From IMG/VR virus record IMGVR_UViG_3300028734_000012, positions 1 to 64,000 of that record: 64,000 nucleotides of DNA. One strand, given 5' to 3'. Made by a program: the position numbers and the translations under genes. The notes under the pieces are model-generated. The model saw only the letters and a list, made by a program, of their open reading frames with translations, made no database searches and was not told the origin of the DNA. The DNA comes from a virus. This document shows, one piece after another, positions 4,397-55,310 of this stretch (within the stretch, counting starts at the first letter, position 1; every line of letters starts with the position of its first letter).

Positions 4397-5467
4397 TTAT
4401 GCCGCTAATTTAGCTTTTTTATATTGCTGACTTTTCGCTTTCCCATCAGCATATTTCTTGAAAATTTCAATCAGCATTTTGCTTGTAGTCCTTGCTGACA
4501 CGGCATTGTAACTAGGAAGGAAATTTTCAATAATACAATCTAACATTTCCGTCCACATGCAAGTAAGTTCAAAGTATTGGTTGGCATTCACAAATTTAGA
4601 AAGTCTAAACTCAATCCTCTGTGTTTCGCTCAATGCAATCCAAGAACAATGGTCTGTGTAAGACGATTCTTTTTCAGCATAGTCAGTAAAGTATCTGCCG
4701 CATACTCTTTCTGTATCAGCCCTATTTGATTCCATATGGTTATAAAGTGGATTAAACAATTCATATGCATACTGCCTAATTTCAGATGTAGAATAAGCAT
4801 CGATATGTTCTGTGTCACCAATATTGATATGTTGACCACATGATTCATCCTCAAAACTAACATACTTATTGAATGAAGTGAATAGCTTTCTAAGCCCACG
4901 TAAGCCATTGTAAATTGGTGTTTTGAACTCTATGCCACTAGTACTTAAAGAGCCATCACAAGTAGGGATAAGCCCATATACGCTGTTAATCATCGAAAGT
5001 TTATCTTCATTAGAGTTTGGATAACATTCTAATTCAAACCCATATGTTTTATGGCTTTTTGTTGGCTTATGGATTTGATTTGTACTTTTTACGCTAGAAT
5101 TTTTTATTGAAGAACATGTACGGCATACATATTTTCCAGATGACGATTTACCGCAATGCCTTCTAGGTAAAATTTGGCTACAATTAGCGCATTTAACATC
5201 TTTAACTACATTAGAAGAAACAGGATGGACAACGCTTAGATGCTCAATCATATCTGTAGAAAATGTGTATCCAAATGATGGACTTATACTTATACGGCTA
5301 CCACAGATATAAACAATTTCTACCTCTTTCCCACAATATTGTTCCATGTTTGAGACAAAAGTACACCTACATGGGATTTCTCCCCCTCTTTCCCCAAATT
5401 CATTTACCATATCATCCCACTCACGAATACGAACCCTATCTCCAATTGTAAAATTCTTGTCTGTCAT
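4397..5467 (-). CDS. putative amidoligase (COOH-NH2 ligase type 2), subtype B, with N-terminal SH3-like and Zn-ribbon domains
   Basis: YGFELEC, DGSL, EFKTP, CGQHINIG, EFR motifs; CxxC pairs. Confidence 0.8.
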   Translation of the reverse strand: MTDKNFTIGDRVRIREWDDMVNEFGERGGEIPCRCTFVSNMEQYCGKEVEIVYICGSRISISPSFGYTFSTDMIEHLSVVHPVSSNVVKDVKCANCSQILPRRHCGKSSSGKYVCRTCSSIKNSSVKSTNQIHKPTKSHKTYGFELECYPNSNEDKLSMINSVYGLIPTCDGSLSTSGIEFKTPIYNGLRGLRKLFTSFNKYVSFEDESCGQHINIGDTEHIDAYSTSEIRQYAYELFNPLYNHMESNRADTERVCGRYFTDYAEKESSYTDHCSWIALSETQRIEFRLSKFVNANQYFELTCMWTEMLDCIIENFLPSYNAVSARTTSKMLIEIFKKYADGKAKSQQYKKAKLAA

Positions 5468-5726
5468 TTTGTACCTCTTTGTTTTTATTTATTTAATTTA
5501 TGTTTATATTATATATCTTTTCAATTATTTTGTCAAGTAAAATAACAATAAAGATAATATTTTATATATTGTAATATGAATTGAATTATCCCTTTATATT
5601 ATAATATGAAAATATGCATATAAAAAATATAGAGAACCAACATTTCCCTAACGAAAATGCAGTTCTCTATATTCCCAAAAAAGAAAAGAGGTTTTGATAC
5701 CAAAGCGTATCAAGTCTAGTAATAAA

Positions 5727-5813
5727 TGGTAGGCGCGGTGGGACTTGAACCCACAAGGTATTTCTACCACAGGATTTTAAGTCCTGTGCGTTTGCCAATT
5801 TCACCACGCGCCC
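5727..5813 (-). tRNA. tRNA-Leu(TAA)
   Basis: Cloverleaf, CAGGA-CTTAAAA-TCCTG, long variable arm, encoded CCA. Confidence 0.95.
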
Positions 5814-5885
5814 ATATAAAACATAGATTTTGTTCCGTAATCACAATAAAGGTTGGTTGATACGAACAAATAGTTCTATGTTTGT

Positions 5886-5975
5886 TGGCGGAAGATACAG
5901 GATTTGAACCTGTGGATGGTTTTAGCCATCACTTGTTCAGCAAACAAGCGCGATAATCCGCTCTGCCAATCTTCC
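5886..5975 (-). tRNA. tRNA-Ser(GCT)
   Basis: CTTGT-TTGCTGA-ACAAG, long variable arm, GCCA end. Confidence 0.93.
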
Positions 5976-6144
5976 GTATATACGCAACTAATCAGTAATT
6001 GCTACTGTCTACAATCTTAGCTTTGTTTCGATATTTTCGGAACGGCTTACTTGCCACTAAAATCTGATAGAACGACTTGTCATAGTCCATCGTATTCGCC
6101 TTACCATCGGCTTCTATCTATTTTTTACCACCTATGAATGGGGT

Positions 6145-6237
6145 TGGTGGGAAATACAAGATTCGAACTTGTGATGCTTTCGCATACGCTCCGCTTATTC
6201 AGCTAGAGTGTGTATTAACCCGCTCTACCAATTTCCC
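6145..6237 (-). tRNA. atypical type II tRNA with expanded anticodon arm (identity undetermined)
   Basis: Acceptor GGGAAAT/ATTTCCC, D arm, T arm, variable arm and ACCA present; 14-nt anticodon loop. Confidence 0.7.
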
Positions 6238-6437
6238 GTATACACCACAAAAGCAGTTGTGGTCACTGTATCCATTAAATTTTCAAGCACCATTACTGCG
6301 TATGAGCATTCATGTATTTGCACTCATAAACCACAATATTAAGTAACGTTTCCATAAAATTTCAATATTATGTCTGTATCCATAATCCTCGCGCTTACCT
6401 AGCGCATTTAGAAATTTTACCATAATACAGTTGGGGA

Positions 6438-6514
6438 TGGTGGATACTACAGGACTTGAACCTGTGACCTTTACATTATGAGTGTACCGCACTAACCATC
6501 TGTGCTAAGTATCC
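6438..6514 (-). tRNA. tRNA-Ile2/Met(CAT)
   Basis: CT-CAT-AA loop; body resembles Firmicute lysidine tRNA-Ile2; ACCA end. Confidence 0.9.
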
Positions 6515-6599
6515 ATTTGTATAGATAATTAGTAGTAATAACTACCTATAGACGAGAAACAATGAAAAAATAATCTAGCAATTTATAGCTTTAAGCTAT

Positions 6600-6673
6600 T
6601 GGCGGGAGATAGCAGAATCGGACTGCTGTACCACGGGTCAAAGCCGTGTACACTACCATTGTGTTAATCCCCA
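6600..6673 (-). tRNA. tRNA-Gln(TTG)
   Basis: CACGG-CTTTGAC-CCGTG, GCCA end, variant T loop. Confidence 0.88.
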
Positions 6674-6680
6674 TTATAAA

Positions 6681-6781
6681 AGTACATCAAAAGTTTTCCC
6701 TACTTAAACTAAATATCACAAGCCGTATTTACTACAACTTACAGTCACTAAAGGATTCGAACCTTTATTTTTGATGTACCC
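6681..6781 (-). ncRNA. circularly permuted tRNA mimic (YrlA/Y-RNA-like topology)
   Basis: 11-bp terminal stem, then T arm, loop-closed acceptor-like stem, then D arm. Confidence 0.6.
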
Positions 6782-6784
6782 ATT

Positions 6785-6860
6785 TGGTACATTGGTAAGG
6801 TAATATTTCAACCTTTCGGACACGATACTGCCGCGTACCAGATGCCCTATTAACCAATAT
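6785..6860 (-). ncRNA. putative structured small RNA, three-way junction ending in ACCA
   Basis: ATATTGGT/ACCAATGT closing stem, two internal hairpins, abuts CCA of the upstream tRNA. Confidence 0.4.
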
Positions 6861-6935
6861 TGGCGGAAGTATTCGGACTTGAACCGAAAACTTATTGGGT
6901 AAGAACCAATTACTCTACAATTGAGTTATACTTCC
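6861..6935 (-). tRNA. tRNA-Lys(CTT), atypical G discriminator
   Basis: ATTGG-TTCTTAC-CCAAT, GCCA end. Confidence 0.82.
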
Positions 6936-7018
6936 ATTTTGGTTGGCAGTATTTCTACTACTTCCAACCATGCTAAGAAAAACTAAAATATTGTATATAA
7001 CTTATGGGTATTACCCAT

Positions 7019-7093
7019 TGGTGCGCCCACAGAGATTCGAACTCTGATTTGTAGGTTAAAAGCCCACTACTCTAGCCGTTGAGTTATAAGCGC
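7019..7093 (-). tRNA. tRNA-Lys(TTT)
   Basis: GTGGG-CTTTTAA-CCTAC, ACCA end. Confidence 0.93.
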
Positions 7094-7177
7094 ATGTAAA
7101 TTGGTAACAGCCAAATATTACCAATCTCATATCTGTTTCTTTACGGTTGGTTGAAAGAAATAGACAAAGAAAGCGGG

Positions 7178-7265
7178 TGGTGACACAAGATGGATTCGAA
7201 CCATCGTACCTAGTTAAAGGAGCGGGTTTACAGCCCGCCGTAGTTGACCACTGTACCACTGTGCC
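7178..7265 (-). tRNA. tRNA-Tyr(GTA)
   Basis: GCGGG-CTGTAAA-CCCGC, long variable arm, ACCA end. Confidence 0.95.
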
Positions 7266-7272
7266 ATAAAGA

Positions 7273-7345
7273 TGCAAAATATAGGATTCGAACCTATCCC
7301 TGTCGGTCTCCACGACCAACCGCTCTCCCTCTAAGCTATTCTTGC
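7273..7345 (-). tRNA. atypical tRNA with extended anticodon arm, no encoded CCA
   Basis: Normal D and T arms; GTTGGTC-GTGGA-GACCGAC anticodon arm. Confidence 0.65.
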
Positions 7346-7670
7346 AAATATGACGGCATTTAATATATAGGTTACGCTATATATGATGGTTGCCGTCTAA
7401 CCATTTCATTCGGTAACTGGTAGCGGTATAATAAATCGCCACCAAATTGCCCATCTTATAATCTATATTATTATTGTTTTTAATTTATGAACGTATTCAA
7501 AATTTAAATTATAGATACCCAAACAATATTAGATTATATATCCAAGGGGTACATAAGCTATTAGCGCAAGCCATTGTTTACATACTACATGATTCATGAC
7601 AAATATATCGCCATGATACAATTTTTAGGATTGCGAACCTATCTAAACCTTAAACGTGATAGTCCATAAA

Positions 7671-7706
7671 TTAATATGTAGGCGGTGGTCTAATTGTCCT
7701 ATCCAC
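7671..7706 (-). CDS. putative 11-aa leader micro-ORF MDRTIRPPPTY
   Basis: GAGGT RBS 8 nt before GTG, just after the tRNA-operon promoter. Confidence 0.4.
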   Translation of the reverse strand: MDRTIRPPPTY

Positions 7707-7745
7707 TCTTTATTACCTCGTCTTTTCTTTTTTCTCTCTATATAT

Positions 7746-7774
7746 ATTATAGTATAATTTGTGGTGTTTGTCAA
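7746..7774 (-). promoter_or_regulatory. SigA-type promoter of the tRNA cluster
   Basis: TTGACA-N17-TATAAT. Confidence 0.85.
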
Positions 7775-7810
7775 GTAATTAAGTAAAGAATTTAAAAAAC
7801 TTTTTTTTAA

Positions 7811-8302
7811 TTAACCAATTGATTTTTCGTAAGTCTCAATCATTTTCTTTACCATATCTTTGCCGATAGAACTAGCGACTTTGACATTTCCGACAGCTTT
7901 ATCCAAATTAGCGGCTTCAACAACTTTTCTGACGGGTCTAACTTCAAAATCCGCAACCAGTCTTTCATTAATAACCGCCAACCGTTCGCTCAAAACCTCT
8001 TGTTCGGCTTTTTTATCAGCCAAATAACGTGCAATAGCTTTCGCTCTCGCCGTATTTATCTTAATCATCAGACGTTTAAGCGCTCTTTTTTTACCATCTT
8101 CTTCATCGAACACATCACCATCAGAAAAATTGCATCTTGATTTACCTTTGTAAGAATCGTGGATGTAGTATCTCTTATCGAAACATACACCCTCATCAGA
8201 TGTTGCCTTGATAATTGTGCCGATTGCATCATTTCTTGTTCTATCTAGGATTGCTTGTACAACTCCTGTTTCTTTGTTAACGATATAATGGACATTACTC
8301 AT
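7811..8302 (-). CDS. conserved-type phage hypothetical protein
   Basis: SRCNFSDGDVFDEEDGKKRALKR resembles common phage C..D.FD...G...A..R motif. Confidence 0.75.
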   Translation of the reverse strand: MSNVHYIVNKETGVVQAILDRTRNDAIGTIIKATSDEGVCFDKRYYIHDSYKGKSRCNFSDGDVFDEEDGKKRALKRLMIKINTARAKAIARYLADKKAEQEVLSERLAVINERLVADFEVRPVRKVVEAANLDKAVGNVKVASSIGKDMVKKMIETYEKSIG

Positions 8303-8392
8303 TTTGTTTGCTCCTTTATTTGTTTTATTTGGTAATTATATTATAGTATAATTTTACGCGTTTGTCAAGTAAATTAAGAATTTAATTTTTAA

Positions 8393-8587
8393 TTAACGGG
8401 AACAATTATAATAATTTTTAATGCATTGCTCTGTAACATTTAAATCTGTAAACTCGTCAATTACAATCGGCTCTGCATTATCAGCCGTGACCCCTCGTAT
8501 TTGATATCCACCAATTGTCGATTTGACAAATATTTTTGTAAATTCAGCGGCAACTAAGTCACCATCTAATCTAAATAGTACGCGCAT
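8393..8587 (-). CDS. hypothetical protein
   Basis: ORF, RBS. Confidence 0.65.
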   Translation of the reverse strand: MRVLFRLDGDLVAAEFTKIFVKSTIGGYQIRGVTADNAEPIVIDEFTDLNVTEQCIKNYYNCSR

Positions 8588-8608
8588 TTCTTTGTCCTCT
8601 TCTCTTAA

Positions 8609-8887
8609 TTATTTAAGAATAACCATAATCCAACCATTCGGAAATTTTTGGTCTCCGTCAGAACACATAGCGCTTTCAACTTCAACATCAAGAATATCCG
8701 ACAAAAGTTCATTTTGGTCTTTAAGGTCTCCATCTTCGTCAAAGTACTTAGTACAATATTCTGAATCATTATTTATAATTTCGACAGATAAATTTCCTTT
8801 ATCTCCATCAATGTCAAGCCTAATACCTTTATCCTTTGCCAAATAATAAAGTTCTGATTCAGCCAAGAATAATACTTCTTTTTTCAT
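8609..8887 (-). CDS. small acidic hypothetical protein
   Basis: ORF, RBS, own promoter. Confidence 0.7.
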   Translation of the reverse strand: MKKEVLFLAESELYYLAKDKGIRLDIDGDKGNLSVEIINNDSEYCTKYFDEDGDLKDQNELLSDILDVEVESAMCSDGDQKFPNGWIMVILK

Positions 8888-9087
8888 TCCCTTATCCTCT
8901 TCTCTTAATCTCTGTATTTATTATAACATCCTATTTTTCATTTGTCAAGTAAATTAGAAAATAAAATTCAGATTTTATTTTATAATATGAAAATTAAAAT
9001 CAGTTAAAACATTGGGTTTATTCATATTACAATATGAATATTATCAATCAAATAAAAAAGCGGAACATTAATTTGTTCCGCTTCAAT

Positions 9088-9624
9088 TTACTTTAAATCA
9101 GCGCTAAAATCATGTGTAGCCGTACCAACAGGGACATAAATCTTTTCATAATCAACTCTTTCCATATCTCCATAGAACCACGCAAACAATTTGTTTTCAA
9201 CTTTTAATTTGTAAAAATCAACTCTAGGTGTTTGGTTGTCATCTTCTACAAGGTAGGCTGTGCCACTGTCAAGTTTAAGTATAGCTAGACCGTGAATTGA
9301 ATTGTACATAGTATAATAGTATAGCGTTTCTTCAATATAACCGCTTCTGCAATACATGCGACCAGTTACATTCTGGCTGTCTTGTAACGCAACAATATTA
9401 TATGTTTCTGGTGGCTGTTCAACATATAGTTTGTCAACAAATAGATATCCAAAAAGACTAATTATTGATACTATAATTAAGAAAAAGGAAACAAAAAATG
9501 TCATACTAAAAAATTTAGACCTTATTGGATGAACAATCTCACGATTTGTACCCTCTTCACTCATAGCAACAGACAAAATAAACATTGCCATCGAAATAAA
9601 CATAATCAATATAATATTTGGCAT
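9088..9624 (-). CDS. two-TM membrane protein (related to 50002 and 50472)
   Basis: Two hydrophobic segments; start moved to MPNII behind RBS. Confidence 0.7.
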   Translation of the reverse strand: MPNIILIMFISMAMFILSVAMSEEGTNREIVHPIRSKFFSMTFFVSFFLIIVSIISLFGYLFVDKLYVEQPPETYNIVALQDSQNVTGRMYCRSGYIEETLYYYTMYNSIHGLAILKLDSGTAYLVEDDNQTPRVDFYKLKVENKLFAWFYGDMERVDYEKIYVPVGTATHDFSADLK

Positions 9625-9760
9625 TCTTAAAACCTTCTCTTTCTTAATTTCTATAATTATTATAACATATGAATTTTCTATTGTCAAGTAGAATTAAAAT
9701 TTTAATTTTATATTTTCATATTATAATATAAAATATAAATCAACAAAAAAAAGAATGAAC

Positions 9761-10183
9761 TTAATCATTCTTTTTAGGTTTCCATATTGTATTCGTAGGG
9801 TGCGGCTGTAGAAATGGCAAGCCAACATATTTTTTCCATGTTGAATCTTTGCCAATATAGACAAGAACATCTTTCTTTTTCCCTTTGATTTTTAAAGGGA
9901 ATGAGTATATTCCATACAGAGTGCCGACTTGTTCCATTTGGTCTAAATACGGTCTAAGATAATCATGGCAAAGATAAATTTCTCCCAAGGCAATATCTTT
10001 GTCATTACCTATCAATGAAACTGGATAATTCTGTACTGAACCATCGTCTGATTCCTCATAAAAGTTGTATAACTTAATCCCATGCAAAGCATATTCTTGA
10101 ATAAATTTTTCACTTGCAAGAATACCATGCCTTAATTGATTTTCCATAAGAGTGCCATAAGTGAACAAATAGAACATTATCAT
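9761..10183 (-). CDS. gamma-glutamylcyclotransferase (AIG2/GGCT-like)
   Basis: FTYGTLM, GEIY, LDQME, Y motifs. Confidence 0.88.
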   Translation of the reverse strand: MIMFYLFTYGTLMENQLRHGILASEKFIQEYALHGIKLYNFYEESDDGSVQNYPVSLIGNDKDIALGEIYLCHDYLRPYLDQMEQVGTLYGIYSFPLKIKGKKKDVLVYIGKDSTWKKYVGLPFLQPHPTNTIWKPKKND

Positions 10184-10229
10184 TCTCCTTTTCTAAATTA
10201 ATATAAGGGGGAATAATCCCCCTTATAAC

Positions 10230-11600
10230 TTATTCCTCGTTTGGCATTGTAGCTAACTCACAACGTCTTTTCCAGTATTTTTTCATTTCCCGTGTGGTAA
10301 TCAAGTCTTTAAATACCATAGCTTGTACCTCTGCTGTCGTCTTCTCTTTTGCGGCAACAATACAGTTGTTAACAAACTGCAACGTTGCAAAGAACGTATT
10401 GATATTCATTGTGCCCTTAAACATTCTGAACTCAATTGTATTCTCGTTGGCAATGTTGATGCTATAGTAGTGGTCATTGTGATTTCCAGATTTGTTTGCT
10501 TCTTGATAATAGACTGCCAATGGTCTATCAACCTTTTTTGCAAAGTGGTCAAGTCTGCGCTCATTTCTACGAGAAAATATAATAATGTTATCCCAAAACT
10601 TTTCAATAAGGTATAACAATCTCGTAATATATACCTCTTCATTGTCGGCATAATAATCACGGTTGAAATGAACATGCATACCACAAGTTGATGTATCGTG
10701 TGAACAATAGTTAAGCTTCACAAGCCGTGTAAACATATTGCTATAGATACCCTTAATGCTGTTGTGATATTCGAGTGTAGCAGGTTGTGTAATCATTTCA
10801 AAGCCATCACTAATAGAACTATCACTAGAACAGTACATGAAGATATCGTCGTCTTTATTGATGATATCCATTGCAATAGCCGCATTTTCATCACGTTGCC
10901 CACCATCGTCAATTTCCAACTCAATACCCAAATATGGAACGGTTTTTTCATGGTCTTTGCCATAGAATTTTACTACTGGATACCATTTATGGTATGGCAG
11001 AATGAATCTGCGCTTTTGGCAACGGGTACAAAGTTCCTCTGTTGATGTAATGCTATCTCTTTTGAAAGAATGACCGCATTTGCGACAATCACGATAAAGT
11101 TTACGGTAACAGTCAGAACAGATATTTCCTTCATCGTCAGTATGCTTACTGTTGCGCCTATTTAAGCGGCAACCACATAAAGGACACGTTGGGAAGATAT
11201 TGTCAAGCTTAGTTTTAAACGTTGGGTGATGCTCTTTAAGTAAGTTGAAACAAACATCAATAGCTGAATCATTTGCAGAACCGTCCAAGAATCTATCAAT
11301 AAATTTTAGTATGTCTTTTTCAGTTGGGGTGACGACTACAACTTCATCAAGATTTAAGTTATAGCTATCAAACTGGTCAACCAAATAAATCCTGCCCATC
11401 GAATCATCTTGCAAGTTCCAAACAAGCCCAAACCAATTGTTTGCTTGTATCGTATTTAGATATTTTCCACCTAAATTAGCAATCGGAATTACAAAGTCTC
11501 CAACCTCTGGCTCTTTGTCAATAACGGTAAAGTTATGATACAAAGTTGAAGTAATGATATTTTCCGCATTGATTTTAAGATTTAAATTTTCAAAACTCAT
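10230..11600 (-). CDS. putative amidoligase subtype A with Zn-ribbons
   Basis: LGIELEID, DSSI, FEMITQP, CGMHVH, TIEFRMFKGT. Confidence 0.85.
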   Translation of the reverse strand: MSFENLNLKINAENIITSTLYHNFTVIDKEPEVGDFVIPIANLGGKYLNTIQANNWFGLVWNLQDDSMGRIYLVDQFDSYNLNLDEVVVVTPTEKDILKFIDRFLDGSANDSAIDVCFNLLKEHHPTFKTKLDNIFPTCPLCGCRLNRRNSKHTDDEGNICSDCYRKLYRDCRKCGHSFKRDSITSTEELCTRCQKRRFILPYHKWYPVVKFYGKDHEKTVPYLGIELEIDDGGQRDENAAIAMDIINKDDDIFMYCSSDSSISDGFEMITQPATLEYHNSIKGIYSNMFTRLVKLNYCSHDTSTCGMHVHFNRDYYADNEEVYITRLLYLIEKFWDNIIIFSRRNERRLDHFAKKVDRPLAVYYQEANKSGNHNDHYYSINIANENTIEFRMFKGTMNINTFFATLQFVNNCIVAAKEKTTAEVQAMVFKDLITTREMKKYWKRRCELATMPNEE

Positions 11601-11765
11601 TTGTTTATCCTTCTTTTCTTTTTTACTATAGCATTATTATAAACTTATTTATTTAATTTGTCAAGTAAAAAACTATTTTATTTCTAAATAACTTAATTAA
11701 TTAAAAATCAATCACATAAATATAGGAATGGATAATATAATCCACTCCTACACATAATCTATTGA

Positions 11766-12794
11766 TTACAGTTCTGGAAATTGGTCTGGAAATGCCCATT
11801 TATCAGCGACAAATAATCTAACAGCTATTGCGCTGTCATAAACTTTTGCATCACTACCCAATAGGTAATAGTTGCAGTAAGAATCCTCTGATTCAACAAC
11901 CTTAGTGGCAGGAATGTTTTTTATGCCGTCAGTAATCCACAAAGCACCCTCTTTATCAACCCAGTATGTCTCCGCGATACTAGAATCAATTAGCTGTGTC
12001 ATGCCGTCATATTCGACCGTATCTCCAATATTTGCCCTCATTAATCCGATACTCTTGCCGCTATAAGTACTGATTACTTTGTTATTATATTTGGAAGTGG
12101 TCAAATTGTGCTTTCTTGTCCAATCGTATCCGTCGTCGTAATAGTTGTTTTCAATGTCATACTCGCTACCTTTATAGTTAGTTACTTTACTAACTCTCAT
12201 ATAGATATCTTTGTATGTCGTGTTAGAATAGAAAATCCCTTTGTCCTCAACAAAACCTCTGGTGAACATAATCTCGCCCTTATTATTAAGGATTGCCATT
12301 TTGTTGCTACCAATTAATTTTTCAATTAATTCAAGGTTGCATTGTTTGTTAAACCAACCACGATTTTGTCCAATTAAGGTCAAATATTCTTTCACGAAAA
12401 CAGCCGTATCTGATAAATTCTTAGTGGCTTCGGAAGTTGTCAATGAGATTATACCATTGTGGATAACCGCATAGTCCGAAACATATTCTGGCTTACATAA
12501 TGCCCCGTCGTCAGCTTGAATTGGGAATGGATGTGTCATTGTACCATCTTTTGCACCATGAGTTGAAATCCTAAAATGGATAAGCATTCCGCATTTCTTA
12601 AAATTGAATTTCTGGTCATTAAACTTGAAAGAATCCATAAAGGTATCAAATGTCATGAACCCTTTTTTAATATACACCCTACCACCATAGGCGAAGGCAT
12701 ATCCTGCTCCATCATCGTTAGCCGTCCAACAGTTCTGTAAAACTTCATCTGTTGGAAGGTCAACACCCTTTTTCTTAAAAATTGCAATACACAT
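11766..12794 (-). CDS. class II (Ntn) glutamine amidotransferase
   Basis: N-terminal MC, NDDGAG, HFRISTHG, HPF, HNG, SDT. Confidence 0.9.
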   Translation of the reverse strand: MCIAIFKKKGVDLPTDEVLQNCWTANDDGAGYAFAYGGRVYIKKGFMTFDTFMDSFKFNDQKFNFKKCGMLIHFRISTHGAKDGTMTHPFPIQADDGALCKPEYVSDYAVIHNGIISLTTSEATKNLSDTAVFVKEYLTLIGQNRGWFNKQCNLELIEKLIGSNKMAILNNKGEIMFTRGFVEDKGIFYSNTTYKDIYMRVSKVTNYKGSEYDIENNYYDDGYDWTRKHNLTTSKYNNKVISTYSGKSIGLMRANIGDTVEYDGMTQLIDSSIAETYWVDKEGALWITDGIKNIPATKVVESEDSYCNYYLLGSDAKVYDSAIAVRLFVADKWAFPDQFPEL

Positions 12795-12878
12795 TTTTCT
12801 ACCTCTTTATTTCCTTTTTATTGTGTTATTATTATATCACATATTAAATATTTTGTCAAGTAAATTAGAATTTTATTT

Positions 12879-13187
12879 TTATTTTAAATGATATAAATCT
12901 TCTAGGATATTTGATATAATGTCATCTAATTCATCAAATGTTTCATATTTTTCAAACATTACATCTGGTTTACCATCTTTATATTTAATACTAATAATTA
13001 ATTTGTCGTTGTGGACAATGAACTGAACTGAACTTTTTGATACATTAGCGTGTGACCTAAAGTATATATCAAACATATCATTTGAAAGTTGATAACAATG
13101 CCAATTATCTATGTCTACAACATTATCCCTTAAAATTCGTCTGATACAATATAGCGGAATATTATTCTTGTGGTGCTTCTTGCTCAT
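12879..13187 (-). CDS. hypothetical protein
   Basis: ORF, RBS. Confidence 0.65.
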   Translation of the reverse strand: MSKKHHKNNIPLYCIRRILRDNVVDIDNWHCYQLSNDMFDIYFRSHANVSKSSVQFIVHNDKLIISIKYKDGKPDVMFEKYETFDELDDIISNILEDLYHLK

Positions 13188-13497
13188 TTTTGTAATCTCC
13201 TATTATATATTTGAACTCCATTTTTTCCCAACTAACCAAATTCCTTAAAGATTTATAACTGTTACCATATAGAATACGGACAACATTATCGGCATTATTG
13301 AAGGATATTTTTCTTTTAACAATTATACAATTATTGTGAATCTTAATAGATAACGTCATGCCATCTATATCCAATATCGCATAAACAAATGTACTCCAAT
13401 GGTCAACCCCATTTTTCCTAAAAAATAAGCTTACAATATCAAATCCTTCTGATTCAAGTATATCGGTTATTCTGTCCATTTCAAGATTATAAACCAT
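13162..13497 (-). CDS. hypothetical protein
   Basis: ORF, RBS. Confidence 0.65.
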   Translation of the reverse strand: MVYNLEMDRITDILESEGFDIVSLFFRKNGVDHWSTFVYAILDIDGMTLSIKIHNNCIIVKRKISFNNADNVVRILYGNSYKSLRNLVSWEKMEFKYIIGDYKNEQEAPQE

Positions 13498-13518
13498 TTA
13501 TTTCTCCATTTCTATATT

Positions 13519-13779
13519 CTAAAACTTAGATAAATATTTACTAAATTCAGATAGGTCTAACTTATTGTTAATCCTAAAGGTAGAACACATAAACTGATTA
13601 GAGTATCTTATAGATAAGATACACATACTATCAATTACTCTTAGTTCAAGATTATAGAATTTACAAGCTTTAAATGCTTGTATTGATGTGCGTACATGTT
13701 TACAATTGAACCTTGCCTTTCTAATTGAGAACCCTACCGAGTTTAATTTTAGTATTAATTGTTCATTTGTATAATCCAT
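13519..13779 (-). CDS. hypothetical protein
   Basis: Start moved to MDYTNE behind GAGGT RBS. Confidence 0.6.
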   Translation of the reverse strand: MDYTNEQLILKLNSVGFSIRKARFNCKHVRTSIQAFKACKFYNLELRVIDSMCILSIRYSNQFMCSTFRINNKLDLSEFSKYLSKF

Positions 13780-13933
13780 TTTAAGTACCTCTTCTTTTTT
13801 CTTTGTTTTATTATACATCTTATTAAATCTTTTGTCAAGTAAATTAATAAATAAATTATTATATAAAATTCTAAATAAAAAAATATCTAAACTGTTTTAA
13901 AAGTTTAGATATTATAAATCCTTATTTAGAATT

Positions 13934-14188
13934 TTAAAGAACCGTAAATGAAAAATCCTCTTCATTTCTATTCGCTGTAAAGAACACTGGTTTTTCCTTT
14001 TCGTAATCAGCTTTAAAATATCCATTTCCATCGTCTTCCCACAAGATTGTTGGATTAGGAAGATTTATAATCAACCACGATTGCTTTGTAATCATGTTCC
14101 TAGCATGAAAACCTCTGATTGTTCCGTTCTCTAATTTATTGAATAATTCTTTAAATCCTGTTTCACACATAATTTTGTACCCTTTCAT
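13934..14188 (-). CDS. hypothetical protein
   Basis: ORF. Confidence 0.55.
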   Translation of the reverse strand: MKGYKIMCETGFKELFNKLENGTIRGFHARNMITKQSWLIINLPNPTILWEDDGNGYFKADYEKEKPVFFTANRNEEDFSFTVL

Positions 14189-14356
14189 TAATGTATTTTA
14201 TTTGTTATTAGTCTAACATATATTAAACGTTATGTCAAGTACATTTTTAGAAGTTTAATTATTTTTTTTATTAATTCATTATTAAATTGCTATTATAATA
14301 TGAAATATCTAATTAGAATACGGAATTATTGATAACTTAGTTGGCTAGGAATAGCC

Positions 14357-14525
14357 TATAAGATAAGAGGGGCGAAACCACTTTGAAATGCCATTTAGAC
14401 TATATAGAATCAGCCCTAAATGATGTTTTTTTCTTAGCATAGAATTACCGCCCCTATTTTGCCACTTTCACCAGTGTCTATATGGTCTAACCGATTAAAA
14501 TGGGTCAAGCATAGAATTACCGCCC
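14357..14525 (-). repeat. iteron-like element copy 1: two GGGCGGTAATTCTATGCT boxes plus TTCGCCCCTCTTATCTTATA
   Basis: Boxes at 14508-14525 and 14436-14453 (72 bp apart); tail at 14357-14376. Confidence 0.85.
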
Positions 14526-14534
14526 CAAGGATTT

Positions 14535-15437
14535 TCAATGTTTGATTGTGTTTTTAAAACCGCCTAAAACTTCAACGTTTTTATAGTCATTTCCTGCAAA
14601 GTAGACTTTGGGATTGATAAACATCTGCCATGTTTCTACATTAAAGTCATCAACTATATACCTAACTGCTCTTAATTCTTCTTTACCAAAAGTACATGAT
14701 TTAAAAATAGCTTTCAGTTTTCTTGCATTATTTTTGTCATAACCTAATACTTCACAAAGTTCTCCAACAGTTAAAGATTCAATCTTACTGATATCTTCTT
14801 CTTCTGGATTTTTGCAAACGATATTATACTTAGTATTAACGTATGGAATCACCCTAAATAGGTATGATAATTGTTTGTGCCCAGTTGGATTAACCTTTAC
14901 ATATAACTGCCTTACACCGTTAATAAAGAGCCGTATCATGTTGTTGTTCAACTTACTAGGGGTACAGTCTTTAATATCTCCGCGCCTAAAATAATCTTGA
15001 TTCAATGCTATGCTTTCCTCATTTAGAATAAATACACCGTCGTTAATCATCTTATTCCAAAAAATATCAAAAGTGTGCTGATTGATGTTAAGTAGGCTTT
15101 GTAACTTCTCTTTAGTAATTTTTACGTTGTTGTCATATTTTAGAGTATTATCATATCCTGCAAATGTACTAAGAAAAACCAATCTTGTAATCGTAGCATT
15201 GTCAAATTGTGGGAATAATTCTTGACCATAGTTAAATAATAACCATACAAATTTTCCGCATTCAATATTTTGCACCGCTTGCTTTAAATGGCTTTCTTTC
15301 TTCATATTGGAATATGAATCGTTTCTTTTTTGTTGCTTTGGTGTTATGATTTTACTGCCTTTGGGTACACCTTGTAGGACTTCACCAGTCATCTTATCTA
15401 TTAGAATATCATCTTCCATTAATTCACCACCTTTCAT
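14535..15437 (-). CDS. RepL-like / winged-helix DNA-binding protein, candidate replication initiator
   Basis: Two HTH-like segments, C-terminal FINPKVYFAG resembling the RepL NP..F.G motif, N-terminal IDKMTGEV. Confidence 0.55.
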   Translation of the reverse strand: MKGGELMEDDILIDKMTGEVLQGVPKGSKIITPKQQKRNDSYSNMKKESHLKQAVQNIECGKFVWLLFNYGQELFPQFDNATITRLVFLSTFAGYDNTLKYDNNVKITKEKLQSLLNINQHTFDIFWNKMINDGVFILNEESIALNQDYFRRGDIKDCTPSKLNNNMIRLFINGVRQLYVKVNPTGHKQLSYLFRVIPYVNTKYNIVCKNPEEEDISKIESLTVGELCEVLGYDKNNARKLKAIFKSCTFGKEELRAVRYIVDDFNVETWQMFINPKVYFAGNDYKNVEVLGGFKNTIKH

Positions 15438-15499
15438 ATTGTAATATAAAGATATATCATAAAAAATATAGATAGAAATAAAAATATATCTCTATCTAT

Positions 15500-15528
15500 A
15501 TTATAGTATTATTTGTTATCATTGTCAA
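15500..15528 (-). promoter_or_regulatory. SigA promoter of the RepL-like gene, with a palindrome copy downstream at 15433-15450
   Basis: TTGACA-N17-TATAAT. Confidence 0.75.
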
Positions 15529-15683
15529 GTGAATCGGATTTTTCTTTCCATGATTTAGGAATGCAAGCGTAAATTCCGACCGCTATTAAACAAAAAACAT
15601 CTTTTAATGAAGAAAATAGTATATATAAAAAGTATGCCGCCATGAAAAAGAACCCCTAATTTCAATTTGCTATATATTTGTAA

Positions 15684-16130
15684 TCAATGACTTTGCGTTT
15701 CTCTTAGTGCTTCGTAAAAATATCTTCTTGATTCTTCTATATTAACTCTACTGACATTCATTATAGGAGCGTTAGAAATGCCAATATTATTAGTATTTAT
15801 TGTTACCCCATCATAGTTAGTAACTAATGATTGATTAAAATGTCTTCGTGGGGTATAGTCAGATATAACATCATCTAATGGACTTCTAATTCTTTCAGTT
15901 GGTACTTCGTCTTGTTTAACTATAAGATTAGAATCAACGATTGATGAAAGTACATATCCATGACGAAAACCTCTTGCAGTAAATGTCATATCATCACAAG
16001 AATCAACTGTTAATACTTGCTCTAACATATGACTAAAATCTCTTGTAGCAATATGTGTTTGAATAAATATCTGTTGTTTCTCAAAAAGACAATTATATGG
16101 TTTTAGTTTAACCTTTTGATTATAATCCAT
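15684..16130 (-). CDS. LKPxxCL-family small-domain protein
   Basis: KVKLKPYNCL motif shared with 19732, 19946, 24555, 25508. Confidence 0.7.
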   Translation of the reverse strand: MDYNQKVKLKPYNCLFEKQQIFIQTHIATRDFSHMLEQVLTVDSCDDMTFTARGFRHGYVLSSIVDSNLIVKQDEVPTERIRSPLDDVISDYTPRRHFNQSLVTNYDGVTINTNNIGISNAPIMNVSRVNIEESRRYFYEALRETQSH

Positions 16131-16152
16131 TCTTTCTAACCTTTCTTACGCA

Positions 16153-17190
16153 TTATTTTTTGCGTATTTTTCTGTCTTTTACTGTTTCCCAATATGCTTT
16201 AATTTCATCATGTTCGAGTAAGTCTTCCCATTTTAGAGATTGTAATTCAATTTCCGTAACATCTCTTACTTTTCTAACCATTGTGTCAACTAATTGTAGG
16301 GAAGAAATGAACGTATTGTATTTTAAAGTTCCTCTGAATATACGAAATTCAATTGTGTCACAGTTAGTTAGATTGATGGCATAGTATCTGTTTAAATCGT
16401 TACACTTTGATTTACGTACAATTTCATCTGGCTTTTCATCATATTTCTTTGCCCAACTATTGATATTACTAAGACTTCTACGTGAGAATTTACTTAGTTC
16501 TAACCAAAATTTTTCAACAAGATATAAAAGTCTTGTCACGTATAAATCTTCGTCTTTGCTAAAAAAACTTCTGTTGAAATGGATATGTAAACCACAGCTT
16601 GAAGTTTGATGGGAACGGTATCCCTTTTTGATTGCTAATTTAAACATTTCTTTATAGTTGCTTTTTAGTGATGTATGGTATTCAAGGGTAGCAGGTTGCG
16701 TGATATTTTCAAAGCCGTCATCTAAAGAACCGTCATTTTCAAAATGGATAAATTCGTTAGGCATAATAGCTTCAATTGATTCTGCCGTTTCCTCATTTTC
16801 ATCACTATCAAATCCACACCCTTTGTCGTCAGAATCTATTTCCAATTCAATCCCGAGATAAGGAACTTGACGCATTTCATCGTCACCAAAGAATTTAATT
16901 CTGCCATCAAATTCATGGTAATCTTTTATTTTACGGCTGTCTGTTCTATCGTTAAAACAATCACAGCAGTAATAATTATCAGATTCAATATATGCATCGT
17001 CTTTGTAAATCAATATTCCACAGTCTTCGCATTCTACGATATACTTATCTTTACAAGTATCACAAATGTGATGCCCGTTGTCGTCAATAAAATCCTCGTC
17101 TTCATCAGAAATAGTATATCCACAAATATTACAAGTCATTAGTTTCTCCTTTTTTAAATCTTTATTTTTAAAATTAAATATGTTAAGCAA
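16153..17190 (-). CDS. putative amidoligase subtype A with Zn-ribbons
   Basis: LGIELEID, DGSL, FENITQP, CGLHIH, TIEFRIFRGT; true start may be MTCNIC. Confidence 0.85.
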   Translation of the reverse strand: MLNIFNFKNKDLKKEKLMTCNICGYTISDEDEDFIDDNGHHICDTCKDKYIVECEDCGILIYKDDAYIESDNYYCCDCFNDRTDSRKIKDYHEFDGRIKFFGDDEMRQVPYLGIELEIDSDDKGCGFDSDENEETAESIEAIMPNEFIHFENDGSLDDGFENITQPATLEYHTSLKSNYKEMFKLAIKKGYRSHQTSSCGLHIHFNRSFFSKDEDLYVTRLLYLVEKFWLELSKFSRRSLSNINSWAKKYDEKPDEIVRKSKCNDLNRYYAINLTNCDTIEFRIFRGTLKYNTFISSLQLVDTMVRKVRDVTEIELQSLKWEDLLEHDEIKAYWETVKDRKIRKK

Positions 17191-17196
17191 AATTAT

Positions 17197-17313
17197 TTAT
17201 CCTTTATGTTTTAATTTGCGATTGTATTTTTTTTTGTTTTTAACAACTTTAGTAACAGGACAAATATCCCATAGTATTCTAGTTGCATGGACTTTTGTTT
17301 TTTTCTTAACCAT
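17197..17313 (-). CDS. small basic protein (38 aa)
   Basis: MVKKKTKVHATRILWDICPVTKVVKNKKKYNRKLKHKG, behind its own promoter. Confidence 0.55.
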   Translation of the reverse strand: MVKKKTKVHATRILWDICPVTKVVKNKKKYNRKLKHKG

Positions 17314-17456
17314 TTTTTCATCTCTTTTCTAAACATATTATACCATTTATTATACCATTTGTCAAGTAGAAATGGAAACTCATTTTTTTATATTGCAATA
17401 TGAGTATATTATTGGATAAAAATAGGATAATCCCTAATTGAGATTATCCTATTTTT

Positions 17457-18614
17457 TTAAGCTACTCGTTTTTGACAAATAGCTTTCCCGTCGGCATATT
17501 TTTTAAAAATTTCGATAAGTTTTTCACTAACAGATATCCCATCTGCCATCAATTTTGAGTTTTTAATCACTTCGCTACTGCCGTAAGTATATGCATATGA
17601 AACTTTAGCATCGAATGCAGTATTAAACTTTAAGAAATCAGAAATAACAACATCTAACATTTCAGTCCACATCATAGCTAACTCAAAATATTGATTAGGT
17701 GTAACAAATTTAGAAAGCCTAAATTCAAGCCTATTATCATGATTAAAGTTAATCCATGAAGAATGGTCTGAATATGCTTTCAAGTCTGCATACCCAGTAA
17801 AATATCTGCCGCAAACTTTTTTAGTCTTGTCCACATTACTGCGCATATAATGATACAAAGGTGTGAAAATCTCTGGTGCATACACTCTGATTGACTGTAT
17901 GTTGTTATTGTTGATGTATTTAGAATCACCAATGTTAATGTGTTGACCGCAATATTCGCTACTAAAGTCTACGTGAGAATCAAAAGTTTTGAATAACTTT
18001 CTAAGTCCACGGGTACTTTGATAAATTGGTGTCTTAAACTCTACCCCACCAATACTAGAGATAGAGCCGTCCTCTGTTGGAAGTAGGTTGTATTTTGAAC
18101 TGATAATGGAGTTTTTGTGTAATTCATCAATAGGGACACACTCTAATTCAAACCCGTATGTCTTATTGCTTTTAGATGGCTTATGAATTGCAATGTCGTT
18201 AGTGTCGCAATAATCTTTTACTGCGGCACATTCATTGCAAATATATGAGTTATTCATTGTTTTGTTTGCTCTGTGTTTTTTTGTGACCGCTCCACAGTTT
18301 GCACATTTAACTGTTCTTGACAATTGTGCGGCTGTTAGCGGAACTTCATAATATAAGTCAATGCAATCAGTACTTATATATCTTTCCACCATAGTTCCAT
18401 CTTTATCGAAAAGAATTAACTTCCCCATGTTCTCTGAACATTTGATAACCTTTTTAATTTTGAAGATTTCTCCGCAACGTTTTTCCATATTCTCTTCTAA
18501 AGTAATGGCAGTACGGATACCATAGCTACTACCACCATATTTTGTCATAAGTTCATTCCACGGAGATAATTTAACTAAATCGCCAGCATGTAATTCTCTG
18601 TAATCAATACTCAT
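17457..18614 (-). CDS. putative amidoligase subtype B with N-terminal SH3-like and Zn-ribbon domains
   Basis: YGFELEC, DGSI, EFKTP, CGQHINIG, EFRLSKF. Confidence 0.8.
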   Translation of the reverse strand: MSIDYRELHAGDLVKLSPWNELMTKYGGSSYGIRTAITLEENMEKRCGEIFKIKKVIKCSENMGKLILFDKDGTMVERYISTDCIDLYYEVPLTAAQLSRTVKCANCGAVTKKHRANKTMNNSYICNECAAVKDYCDTNDIAIHKPSKSNKTYGFELECVPIDELHKNSIISSKYNLLPTEDGSISSIGGVEFKTPIYQSTRGLRKLFKTFDSHVDFSSEYCGQHINIGDSKYINNNNIQSIRVYAPEIFTPLYHYMRSNVDKTKKVCGRYFTGYADLKAYSDHSSWINFNHDNRLEFRLSKFVTPNQYFELAMMWTEMLDVVISDFLKFNTAFDAKVSYAYTYGSSEVIKNSKLMADGISVSEKLIEIFKKYADGKAICQKRVA

Positions 18615-18715
18615 CTTTTGTTTTTACCTCTTTTTTTTATTTGTGTTGATATTATAATCCTATTTGTTTAATTTGTCAAGTAATTAGTAATTTTATTTAT
18701 TTAATTACTAATTAA

Positions 18716-19537
18716 TTAAGCAACTCGCTGTTGGCATAAAGCACTGTGATTGGCATATTTTTTAAAAATTTCAATTAATTTACTTTGTACCTTTTCCAGT
18801 GCTTTATCCGATGTTCTGTAATCAGTGAAAGGCTTTTTCAAAAGATTGTTAATAATTAAGTCAATCATTTCTGTCCACATACAAGTTAAGTTGAAATATT
18901 GATTAGGTGTAACAAACTTTGAAATTCTAAATTCAATACGGTCGTCATGTGTTAGATTAATCCATGATTTGTGAGTATTATATGTGCTATACATATTAGC
19001 GTAATTAGTAAAATACCTACCACATACACGGATAGTATCGTCAGTGTGAAGTTTCATATAATTTCCCAAACGGTCAAATATTATATTGCCGCAACTTCTA
19101 AGAAAATCCATCGTATGTATATTGATATAGCTAGTATCGCCTATGTTAATATGTTGACCACATTTTGGGCTAGTAAAATTCACATTTTTAATAACCATTT
19201 TGAACAGTTTTCTAAGTCCTCTCATACTATTATATATAGGAGTTTTAAATTCTATCCCCGTCGGTGGCAATGAGCCATCTTTTGTTGGGATAAATTGATA
19301 CTTAGAATTGATTAGAACCCTTTTCTTTTGTGGGCTACGTGGTATACATTCTAACTCAAACCCATATGTCTTATGGTTTTTTGTTGCCTTATGCACTTTA
19401 GTTTCATTTTTAGTATAGTATCCTTTTGTCCTATCACAAGATGGGCAGATGTAGGCATTTTTTTGTCCTACTTTTCTGGCATCACATCTTTGTACCATTA
19501 CACCGCAATTTTGGCATTTTAAAATTCTTCTTGTCAT
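18716..19537 (-). CDS. putative amidoligase subtype B with Zn-ribbon
   Basis: YGFELEC, DGSL, EFKTP, CGQHINIG, EFRISKF. Confidence 0.8.
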   Translation of the reverse strand: MTRRILKCQNCGVMVQRCDARKVGQKNAYICPSCDRTKGYYTKNETKVHKATKNHKTYGFELECIPRSPQKKRVLINSKYQFIPTKDGSLPPTGIEFKTPIYNSMRGLRKLFKMVIKNVNFTSPKCGQHINIGDTSYINIHTMDFLRSCGNIIFDRLGNYMKLHTDDTIRVCGRYFTNYANMYSTYNTHKSWINLTHDDRIEFRISKFVTPNQYFNLTCMWTEMIDLIINNLLKKPFTDYRTSDKALEKVQSKLIEIFKKYANHSALCQQRVA

Positions 19538-19575: not shown

Positions 19576-19698
19576 ATTATAGTTTCTAATTGTTTATTTG
19601 TCAAGTAATATTAAATATTAGATATTACATATTTGTTACCATATTAAAATAAATAATATTTCAATTTACTTGACAAATTATCCTTATACTATTATAAT
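19576..19698. promoter_or_regulatory. divergent SigA promoters at the strand switch
   Basis: TTGACA-N17-TATAAT at 19604-19576 (-) and 19670-19698 (+). Confidence 0.85.
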
Positions 19699-25820: not shown

Positions 25821-26642
25821 ATGAGCGTATTACTTAATGGCAAAATGATTGGCAACAGATGTTATCCGAACAATGAGCGCATTTTTGATAAAAAGGACAC
25901 AGGAATCGGCAAGTTTAACATTATCACTTTGAATTACGAAACAGACATTGATATTACTATCTTGTCTATTATCGTAAGATTTCTAAGGGATGAATATCCG
26001 CAATCATTTAATCGCCTTATCATGAGGTATATCCCATATGAGCGTATGGACAGAAAAATCGGTGGGTACATTTTTAGCTTAAAGTATTTCTGCCAAATGA
26101 TTAACGAACTTCATTTCGATGAAGTCTATGTGATGAATGCTCATTCGAGTGTTTCCACGGCATTGCTTGACAGAGTTAAAGAAATGGATATCAGCCAACA
26201 CATCCATGATGTGATTACGCAACAGTCAATTGATTGTCTTTTCTATCCAGACAACGGCGCGCAGAAGAGATATTCTGAATTGTTTACAGAAAACAAAGGT
26301 AGCTACATCAATCGAAAAATCAGTGAACTTCCGCACTTCTTTGGTGATAAGAAAAGAGATTTAGACACAGGACATATCTTGTATTATAATCTAATTGAAG
26401 CACCAGACTTGACGGATAAGAACGTTCTTATCGTTGATGACCTTTGTAGTATGGGTTATACCTTTCTTATGGCGGCAAAGTCGCTCAAAGAAGCAGGAGC
26501 GAAGACAGTATCGCTCTATGTAAGCCATTGTGAAAATTCAGTCTTCAAGGGCGAATTGCTTACCACTGACTATGTTAACAGAATCTTTACTACATACAGC
26601 CTTTCCCCTTCTTCACATGAAAAAATTACCCTTATGGATTGA
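25821..26642 (+). CDS. prs: ribose-phosphate pyrophosphokinase-like (Prs/Adps-like)
   Basis: YPNNE, YIPYERMDR, HS, PDNGA, K.R, LIVDDLCSMGYTF. Confidence 0.88.
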   Translation: MSVLLNGKMIGNRCYPNNERIFDKKDTGIGKFNIITLNYETDIDITILSIIVRFLRDEYPQSFNRLIMRYIPYERMDRKIGGYIFSLKYFCQMINELHFDEVYVMNAHSSVSTALLDRVKEMDISQHIHDVITQQSIDCLFYPDNGAQKRYSELFTENKGSYINRKISELPHFFGDKKRDLDTGHILYYNLIEAPDLTDKNVLIVDDLCSMGYTFLMAAKSLKEAGAKTVSLYVSHCENSVFKGELLTTDYVNRIFTTYSLSPSSHEKITLMD

Positions 26643-55208: not shown

Positions 55209-55310
55209 TTAAATAATTAATTTAAAAATAGATTTGTCAATTACTTGACAAATCTATTTTTTTGTTGTATAATTAATACACAAGATAAAAGAATTAGAGA
55301 GGTAATTAAA

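Follow-up and report, generated by a model that had tools for sequence, protein, structure and literature searches.

Why should one phage carry six ligase genes of one superfamily beside two enzymes of gamma-glutamyl chemistry, and do these genes work as one system? The question is raised by the stretch of DNA examined here, which comprises the first 64 kb (the window; G+C ~31%) of the 176,332-bp virus record IMGVR_UViG_3300028734_000012, estimated to be 89% complete. An earlier note on this DNA had read six open reading frames (ORFs) with ligase motifs resembling those of glutamine synthetase (GS), together with a class-II glutamine amidotransferase (GATase) and a gamma-glutamylcyclotransferase (GGCT), as a candidate toolkit for writing and erasing peptide or protein modifications. 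We found that the six-copy set is an expanded and rearranged form of the known phage amidoligase-GATase-GGCT module. From their sequences and a structural model, the six proteins are predicted to be catalytically intact, cytoplasmic ATP-dependent carboxylate-amine ligases with the fold of GS, gamma-glutamylcysteine ligase (GCL) and PafA.

Six ligase genes of two types

The six ligase ORFs were found intact, all on the minus strand and at the positions reported earlier, and their coordinates, alignment and motifs uphold the division into subtype A (10230 and 16153, genes being named here by their lower coordinate) and subtype B. Alignment of the six paralogues revealed invariant E-x-E, D, E, C-G-x-H, E-F-R and N columns, with the motif CGMHVHFNR in 10230, CGLHIHFNR in 16153 and, among the four type B proteins (4397, 17457, 18716 and 42638), CGQHINI in three and CGHHINI in one. 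We considered that some of the paralogues might be decayed or pseudo-enzymes and rejected this, as all catalytic columns are kept, even in 42638 with its long branch.

The type A ligases comprise A1 (10230-11600, 456 aa), in which an N-terminal domain of about residues 1-130 is followed by a double zinc ribbon and an Amidoligase_2 core, and A2 (16153-17190), which has a double zinc ribbon and an Amidoligase_2 core and whose likely start, judged from the sequence, is the ATG at 17139 behind an AGGAG, giving 328 aa. Three genes are of type B1: 4397-5467 (356 aa), directly 3′ of a tRNA array, with an SH3-like barrel at residues 1-80, a zinc ribbon at 93-118 and a GS-fold core at 135-356; 17457-18614 (385 aa), with an SH3-like barrel, a zinc ribbon and a ligase core carrying a C-terminal insert; and 18716-19537 (273 aa), with a single zinc ribbon and a GS-fold ligase core. 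The sixth gene, of type B2 (42638-43543, 301 aa), is a divergent, isolated copy within a minus-strand islet. The type B profile scored 398 bits with 18716 and 249 bits with 42638, and searching the other 112 kb of the record with it revealed no further ligase copy, the only match beyond the four type B genes being a weak one to 10230.

In the Amidoligase_2 search that the earlier note had proposed, both type A proteins passed the curated gathering cut-off of PF12224 (22 bits, whole-protein score), with 24.3 bits for 10230 and 32.1 bits for 16153, and they also matched phrog_16683 (E 1e-58 and 8e-64, respectively). Type B fell below that cut-off: 4397 scored 19.6 bits, 17457, 18716 and 42638 gave no match, and only 7 of 41 type B family members reached E 0.01. 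It was placed by profile-profile comparison, at which the catalytic profiles of the two types aligned with a probability of 96.1% (hhalign, E 3e-9). Sequence-profile searches of the Protein Data Bank (PDB) returned weak zinc-finger or LIM matches or nothing for type B, A1 and the GATase, and nothing for the cyclotransferase protein.

The AlphaFold 2 model of the 4397 protein (predicted local distance difference test, pLDDT, 89.5) matched glutamine synthetases in Foldseek with E 9e-6 and a probability of 1.0. Its alignment with GS 8oow had a Z-score of 9.5 (191 residues aligned, root-mean-square deviation, rmsd, 5.3), followed by GmaS (Z 9.1), Dop (8.2), PafA (7.0) and GCL (6.2-6.6), with the 1-naphthylamine GS NpaA1 lying within the range of 9.5-7.0; sequence identity to PafA and Dop was ~11-13%. 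Annotated phage amidoligases, for example that of Pseudomonas phage tf, were matched with E-values down to 1.8e-11. Eight residues (E145, E147, D171, E180, K182, H213, E286 and R288) do not vary among 41 type B homologues and are putative metal and ATP-phosphate ligands, the mapping onto the GS metal ligands being by motif order; the equivalent catalytic residues are likewise constant in 40 type A homologues. A GS-type fold and metal ligands in type B, on which the earlier reading had been made to depend, were thus both found, as fold matches and invariant putative ligands. Since these three independent lines (the profile alignment of the two types, the matches of the model and the invariant ligands) agree, type B is placed in the GS-type superfamily, the placement of type A resting on Pfam and on its alignment to type B, as the model is of a type B protein. 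By profile and model, type B is a divergent sister clade of Amidoligase_2 and not a member of PF12224.

Zinc ribbons had been claimed for the N-termini of all six proteins, and a CxxC...CxxC pattern is indeed present upstream of the catalytic domain in each, with one ribbon per type B and two per type A protein. The ribbon cysteines are invariant or nearly so among the homologues (41 of type B, 40 of type A), and the double ribbon of type A is weakly LIM-like (10230; E 0.005). What precedes the ribbon varies. In the model, residues 1-80 of 4397 form an SH3/KOW/Tudor-like barrel (Z 8.9 to the REP domain of Mind bomb), Pfam SH3_12 is matched by two type B relatives, and LIM matches also occur among family members. 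The metagenomic protein P0386 (JGI 3300029305, 4-kb contig) is a natural fusion in which a cyclotransferase domain (37.5 bits in Pfam) stands before the ribbon and ligase core of type B (BLASTP E 9e-31 to 18716), and P0444 (L017 1298-2965) joins pentapeptide repeats, a zinc ribbon and a type B-like ligase. The idea of a single catalytic core behind variable N-termini is thus borne out at the level of the family, in which SH3-like, LIM-like, pentapeptide-repeat and cyclotransferase domains stand before the same ribbon and core.

Accessory enzymes, promoters and linkage across phages

The GATase-like protein (11766-12794, minus strand, 342 aa) consists of a class-II, N-terminal nucleophile (Ntn) domain at residues 2-198, a linker at 200-245 and a C-terminal domain at 249-334. 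It starts with MC, and this cysteine (C2 of the ORF, the Cys1 of the family) is conserved in at least 90% of 46 homologues, while R75, N113, G114 and D129 are invariant among them. As its GATase_6 score of 16.7 lies below the Pfam cut-off of 27, the class-II family was confirmed by structure and motifs. In the model (pLDDT 82.8), the linker is disordered and rich in Tyr, Asn and Asp, the C-terminal domain is small and beta-rich, and residues 2-198 match the GlmS glutaminase domain 1xff (Z 15.0, 176 aligned, rmsd 3.4) as well as the gamma-glutamyl hydrolase EgtC (Z 13.4) and PurF (Z 12.9). The second accessory protein (9761-10183, minus strand, 140 aa) is a gamma-glutamyl(amine) cyclotransferase of the GGACT/AIG2 type (PF06094, 40.9 bits against a cut-off of 22.8; phrog_2520), with the motifs YGTL at residues 9-12 and GEIY at 67-70, the Glu of the latter being the putative catalytic residue by analogy. 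The identities proposed for both enzymes therefore hold, by Cys1, the invariant residues and the Ntn fold for the first and by PF06094, which makes the proposed GGCT one of GGACT type, for the second. So does the adjacency of 11766, 10230 and 9761, which are contiguous and co-directional.

The transcription of these genes could be read from their promoters. Defining a perfect promoter as TTGACA-N17-TATAAT (12 of 12 positions, 17-nt spacer), we found 35 in the window against 0.06 expected from shuffles, most of them starting with TTGACAAAT or TTGACATT. We take this excess as the mark of a divergent early region that is built of single-gene cassettes and transcribed by the host polymerase. Its promoters point to the left ahead of 19.6 kb and to the right beyond 19.67 kb, and its genes run likewise, from ~19.6 kb and ~19.7 kb. 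All ligases except the isolated B2 copy lie in the early arm read by the host RNA polymerase. Perfect promoters on the minus strand precede 18716-19537 (19576-19604), 17457-18614 (18651-18679), the GATase gene (12831-12859), 10230-11600 (11636-11664, which would also serve the GGACT gene by read-through) and 4397-5467 (5508-5536), at 30-35 nt from the start of these four ligases and the GATase. The promoter at 17337-17365 lies ~200 nt from the likely start of 16153 and also serves a leader ORF between the two (17194-17313, minus strand), which has its own ribosome-binding site and encodes 39 aa, very basic and Lys-rich. No perfect consensus promoter was found for 42638 or for the GGACT gene, nor any strong promoter for 42638; the statement that most of the ligases have their own promoter thus stands for five of the six, and for the GATase, and fails for 42638. 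A GC-rich 11-bp hairpin with a weak T-tract (10202-10227, minus strand), between the A1 stop and the ribosome-binding site of the GGACT gene, is probably a partial terminator or stabiliser. All eight genes (six ligases, GATase and GGACT) have good ribosome-binding sites and end in TAA or TGA, none in TAG.

Relatives of type B were sought in several collections. The word-indexed collection held 84 clusters, none of them annotated, and the exhaustive profile search of 1.84 billion representatives gave 804 proteins at E <=1e-3 and 180 at <=1e-30. Among GenBank phages (50,697 records) type B was not found and the GATase led to five distant records only; scanning IMG/VR for type B relatives gave three loci only. 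Ligases of both types cluster with a GATase in four other contigs, two of which (L006 and L010) also have the GGACT. Their gene orders are GATase, A3, A2, GGACT, A1, B in L006; A2, B, GATase, A1 in L009; A1, GATase, A3, A2, GGACT, B in L010; and B, B, GATase, A1 in L012. In all five loci, the window included, a type A ligase comes next after the GATase, and in four of them it is A1, and orthologues of the A2 gene 16153 are present in L006, L009 and L010.

In the trees, types A and B split with a support of 100, and the orthogroups A1, A2, A3 (missing in the window), B1 and B2 could be told apart. The three B1 copies of the window fall into one subclade of 8 rows (support 86), in which 17457, 18716 and a further homologue, P0007, are joined at 96, and the two type B genes of L012 represent a separate duplication within a clade supported at 99. 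On these trees, type B underwent independent duplication in two phage lineages. The long-branch 42638 has positional orthologues that stand alone at ~118-120 kb in two related phage genomes, G001 and G002, and are 30-31% identical to it over their full length.

These genomes also bear on whether the genes form one system. In G002 (149.8 kb, CheckV 100%), five ligases are accompanied by both a GATase and a GGACT. Its sister from the same sample, G001 (148.6 kb, CheckV 100%), has B1 and B2 only; type A ligases and the two accessory enzymes are missing from this complete genome. The record of the Clostridioides phage AR1086-1 is circular and complete; it shows one type A ligase and no GATase or GGACT. 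Since the sister genome has type B alone and AR1086-1 one type A ligase alone, the six genes are not one obligatory system, and the earlier view of the six copies as a single write-and-erase system is not sustained. The ligase of AR1086-1 sits in a block of unannotated genes (L008, at 87.8-112.7 kb of the record) together with KptA (RNA 2′-phosphotransferase), NrdD/NrdG and RtcB.

Proposed chemistry and targets of the ligases

We infer that the likeliest chemistry of the ligases is the ATP-dependent formation of gamma-glutamyl-type amides on amine acceptors, since this is the only bond that is both recognised by the two accessory families and made by the closest structural relatives. Class-II GATases and GGACTs both act on an L-gamma-glutamyl amide with free alpha-amino and alpha-carboxyl groups, and GS, GmaS, the 1-naphthylamine GS and PafA/Dop all join the gamma-carboxyl of glutamate to an amine through an acyl-phosphate. 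The type A ligases, the GATase and the GGACT would form a conserved core, which is the known phage amidoligase module. In this core the GATase, which precedes type A, and the GGACT, which lies beside type A and is fused to type B in one relative, may trim, recycle or reverse the adduct, or the GATase may instead feed ammonia to the neighbouring ligase. The type B copies would be early effectors that work on their own and modify various macromolecules of host or phage, most likely proteins; their independent duplication, their swappable N-terminal modules and their occurrence without accessory enzymes suit macromolecules, probably proteins, as targets better than they suit a fixed pathway. We adopt this reading as a whole tentatively, giving it a little less than an even chance.

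A bolder form of it, which we consider improbable, is that type B proteins, a hitherto undescribed family of phage early effectors with about 180 to 800 clusters at 50% identity and seen only in uncultured phages, are tag-free, PafA-like protein ligases steered by exchangeable modules (SH3-like, LIM-like or a pentapeptide-repeat DNA mimic), which would glutamylate or aminoacylate host translation, DNA-handling or defence factors, with the GGACT and the Ntn-GATase as dedicated erasers. The likeness to PafA/Dop consists in a GS-like fold without the N-terminal oligomerisation domain of GS and in the pairing of a ligase with an enzyme that deamidates or removes a gamma-glutamyl-linked group; unlike PafA/Dop, the set here has no conserved Pup-like small protein nearby, and its accessory enzymes have Ntn-GATase and GGACT folds instead of being PafA paralogues.

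Several points tell against type B effectors aimed at proteins. No experimental determination of a product, substrate or partner of the family was found in our literature search, and the GS fold in itself does not tell a protein substrate from a small-molecule one. For a simple eraser role, two separate gamma-glutamyl-cleaving enzymes appear redundant. None of the neighbouring small ORFs that could encode a tag-like protein is conserved in the four related clusters, and the 39-aa leader ORF is not in them; a conserved small substrate protein was rejected because ORF 9088, ORF 14535 and the leader do not recur there. With regard to the proposed targeting modules, the N-terminal domain of A1 (~1-130) resembles SH3/KOW domains weakly, at template modelling (TM) scores of 0.40-0.45 only, and a common SH3-like domain of B1, A1 and the GATase C-terminus, all of which start with x-G-D-x-V, was rejected at hhalign probabilities of 0.5-2.9%. 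The zinc ribbon of 4397 is modelled with a pLDDT of 94-96 and packed beside the core, and judging from this model it may be a structural lid instead of a targeting module. Finally, the fusions P0386 and P0444 were each seen in one contig.

The strongest alternative, although we regard it as doubtful, is a route through cell-wall precursors or small molecules, in which the ligases add residues to UDP-MurNAc-peptide or lipid II or amidate residues there, or build a gamma-glutamyl peptide or amine stepwise, with superinfection exclusion or altered lysis as the effect. The GATase would then give ammonia or strip a gamma-glutamyl protecting group, and the GGACT would remove the group as 5-oxoproline. 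MurT/GatD, PuuA/PuuD and BtrJ/BtrG are precedents for such a route, several distinct ligases in one cluster fit a stepwise pathway, and a route of this sort is the published hypothesis for the homologous cassette of podoviruses (PMC5498523, PMC10580990, PMC11318856). The structural matches point the same way, as EgtC, a class-II GATase-like enzyme that strips off a temporary gamma-glutamyl group during a small-molecule pathway, ranks among the top matches of the GATase (Z 13.4), and GmaS and the 1-naphthylamine GS, both enzymes of small amines, are among the best matches of the ligase. In GmaS, PuuA/PuuD, NpaA1 and EgtA/EgtC, a ligase of the GS/GCL fold makes a gamma-glutamyl amide that a hydrolase of GATase fold removes later, which is alike; those systems, however, serve small molecules in host metabolism, whereas here no metabolic context is visible and the ligases bear zinc-ribbon and SH3-like modules. 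MurT/GatD is alike by analogy only, in pairing an ATP-dependent ligase with a separate glutaminase on a cytoplasmic precursor, MurT having a Mur-ligase fold and GatD being a class-I GATase. Against a pathway of this kind, the components are not co-inherited, as seen in G001 with type B only and AR1086-1 with one type A only, and lineage-specific duplication and swapping of N-terminal modules are unusual for pathway enzymes. In addition, the Pfam scans showed no Mur-type, transporter or other wall gene among the cluster ORFs, the cluster lacks the ATP-grasp ligase known from the podovirus cassette, and the PF14395 ligase of that cassette was undetected in a search without a positive control.

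Amidation is an alternative that we judge unlikely. As in MurT/GatD or asparagine synthetase, the GATase would deliver ammonia to the type A ligase, which would turn a target carboxylate into an acyl-phosphate and then an amide, leaving the GGACT as an unrelated housekeeping enzyme or one dealing with a side product. The GATase keeps every residue for binding and hydrolysing free glutamine (Cys1, R75, N113-G114 and D129), the folds nearest to its own are those of true glutaminase domains (GlmS, Z 15.0; PurF, Z 12.9), a type A ligase directly follows it in five of five loci, and its extra C-terminal domain could dock a partner. On the other hand, six ligases stand against a single GATase, the complete G001 genome has type B ligases and no GATase, and the linkage of the GGACT to ligases, in one case by fusion, points to a gamma-glutamyl amide and not to a simple carboxamide.

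Hypermodification of nucleic acids, in which amino acids or ammonia would be joined to bases with a carboxyl or amine group in the phage's DNA or tRNAs (compare CmoY on 5-carboxymethylcytosine), is very improbable: amidoligase and GATase domains do occur beside 5-HMUDK/aGPT-Pplase genes in viral contigs (PMC8989533, Lee et al.), there is an ATP-dependent ligase whose substrate is a carboxyl handle on DNA (PMC12783734), binding to nucleic acids is common among zinc ribbons and SH3/KOW/Tudor-like barrels, and one B1 gene directly follows an array of nine tRNA genes, but CmoY is asparagine-synthetase-like and not GS-like, and such a role is unlikely because the record lacks an enzyme that would install the base handle. 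With working controls, PF00303 (thymidylate-synthase-type hydroxymethylase), PF18723 (5-HMUDK) and PF00145 (C5 DNA methylase) were not found in the 176-kb record; TET/JBP (PF12851) gave no match in it either, in a search without a positive control and with the possibility, at 89% completeness, that such a gene lies outside.

Neighbouring genes, host and relation to known modules

The tRNA array beside the first B1 gene (5727-7346, minus strand, nine tRNA genes) lies between ORF 7811 and 4397 and has a perfect promoter at 7746-7774. One of its tRNAs (6145-6237, 93 nt) has the anticodon CUA, of the amber-suppressor type, and was labelled Pyl by ARAGORN, with no Rfam call at gathering score. Within the ligase block, ORF 14535-15437 (minus strand, 300 aa, phrog_9501) encodes a RepL/winged-helix-like protein with a TM of 0.83 to DNA-binding proteins of Bacillota, and its orthologue in the sister phage G001 is located at L015 4244-5068. 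On the plus strand, a 777-aa ORF (20651-22984) matches no Pfam family, and its residues ~128-214 weakly match the profile of the SH3-like N-terminal domain of type B (E 0.002).

Four genes of the window look like a phage set for NAD reconstitution (salvage): a cytidylyltransferase-like gene of the NadM/NadD type (2099-2674), a Prs-like phosphoribosyltransferase gene (25821-26642), a NAMPT-like gene (27932-29641) and a gene for an NH3-type NAD synthase (30008-30751). An adenylosuccinate-synthetase-like gene was also identified (55245-56528, plus strand; PF00709, E 3e-40), and a homologue of it occurs at L012 15500-16879, four genes 3′ of the ligase cluster of that contig.

The host of this uncultured phage is probably one of the gut Bacillota (Firmicutes), judging by three hints: among cultured phages, AR1086-1 has the nearest relative of a type A ligase; a neighbouring gene has its relatives mostly in Bacillota; and one related contig (L012) is of human gut metagenome origin. 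The last 20 residues of the 163-aa protein of ORF 7811-8302 (minus strand) show a weak similarity (E 0.002) to the small acid-soluble spore protein family, which may be a faint hint, from sequence, of a spore-forming host.

Clusters of PF14395 and PF12224 ligases with a class-II GATase, an ATP-grasp and an AIG2 protein have been described in LUZ24-, phiEco32- and RIO-1-like podoviruses (PMC3890496, PMC5498523). As in phiEco32, LUZ24, PaP3 and RIO-1, where a GS-like Amidoligase_2, a class-II GATase and an AIG2/GGCT protein stand together in an early phage region, the three are contiguous in the window, from 12794 to 9761, and recur in L006 and L010. By reports in papers that cite it, the podovirus amidoligase cassette, also called a 'peptidoglycan modification' cassette, reportedly goes back to Iyer, Abhiman, Burroughs and Aravind in 2009. 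In contrast to the phiEco32-type cassette, the phage studied here has six genes of the Amidoligase_2 lineage in place of one, an additional clade invisible to Pfam (type B), a zinc ribbon on every ligase with SH3-like domains on some, and separate promoter-driven units instead of one coupled operon, and it is a large phage (~150-176 kb) with a probable Bacillota host and not a podovirus. No ATP-grasp was found by Pfam scans of the cluster ORFs of at least 60 aa, and ORF 14535-15437, considered as a concealed ATP-grasp, was rejected as being RepL/winged helix-turn-helix-like.

The description of PF12224 notes neighbourhoods with AIG2-family cyclotransferases in Firmicutes. The set here agrees in that type A passes the family threshold and has an AIG2/GGACT neighbour, whereas type B is related to the family only at the profile-profile and fold level. 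As for the label of COOH-NH2 ligase type 2 used by the earlier note, the association of such phage ligases with a class-II GATase and a GGCT is documented (PMC3890496, PMC5498523), while the family itself (PF14395, COOH-NH2_lig) had no match among the six ligases and none in the 176-kb record at E 0.1, in a search without a positive control.

The module of amidoligase, GATase and GGCT has been observed in hundreds of phages since 2009 and, to our knowledge, its substrate has never been identified. The lineage studied here offers this module in dissected form, as single-gene units each with a strong promoter and as the separable orthogroups A1, A2, B1 and B2. Its natural 'knock-out' relatives, with type B only or a single type A ligase, and the fusions with GGACT or targeting domains provide handles for finding the target. 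Type B itself is a large ligase clade that is missed by current Pfam models and is therefore systematically unannotated in gut phage genomes. If type B proteins are indeed tag-free ligases steered to proteins by exchangeable modules, these phages would possess a reversible protein-modification arsenal of their own, growing by gene duplication in an arms race.

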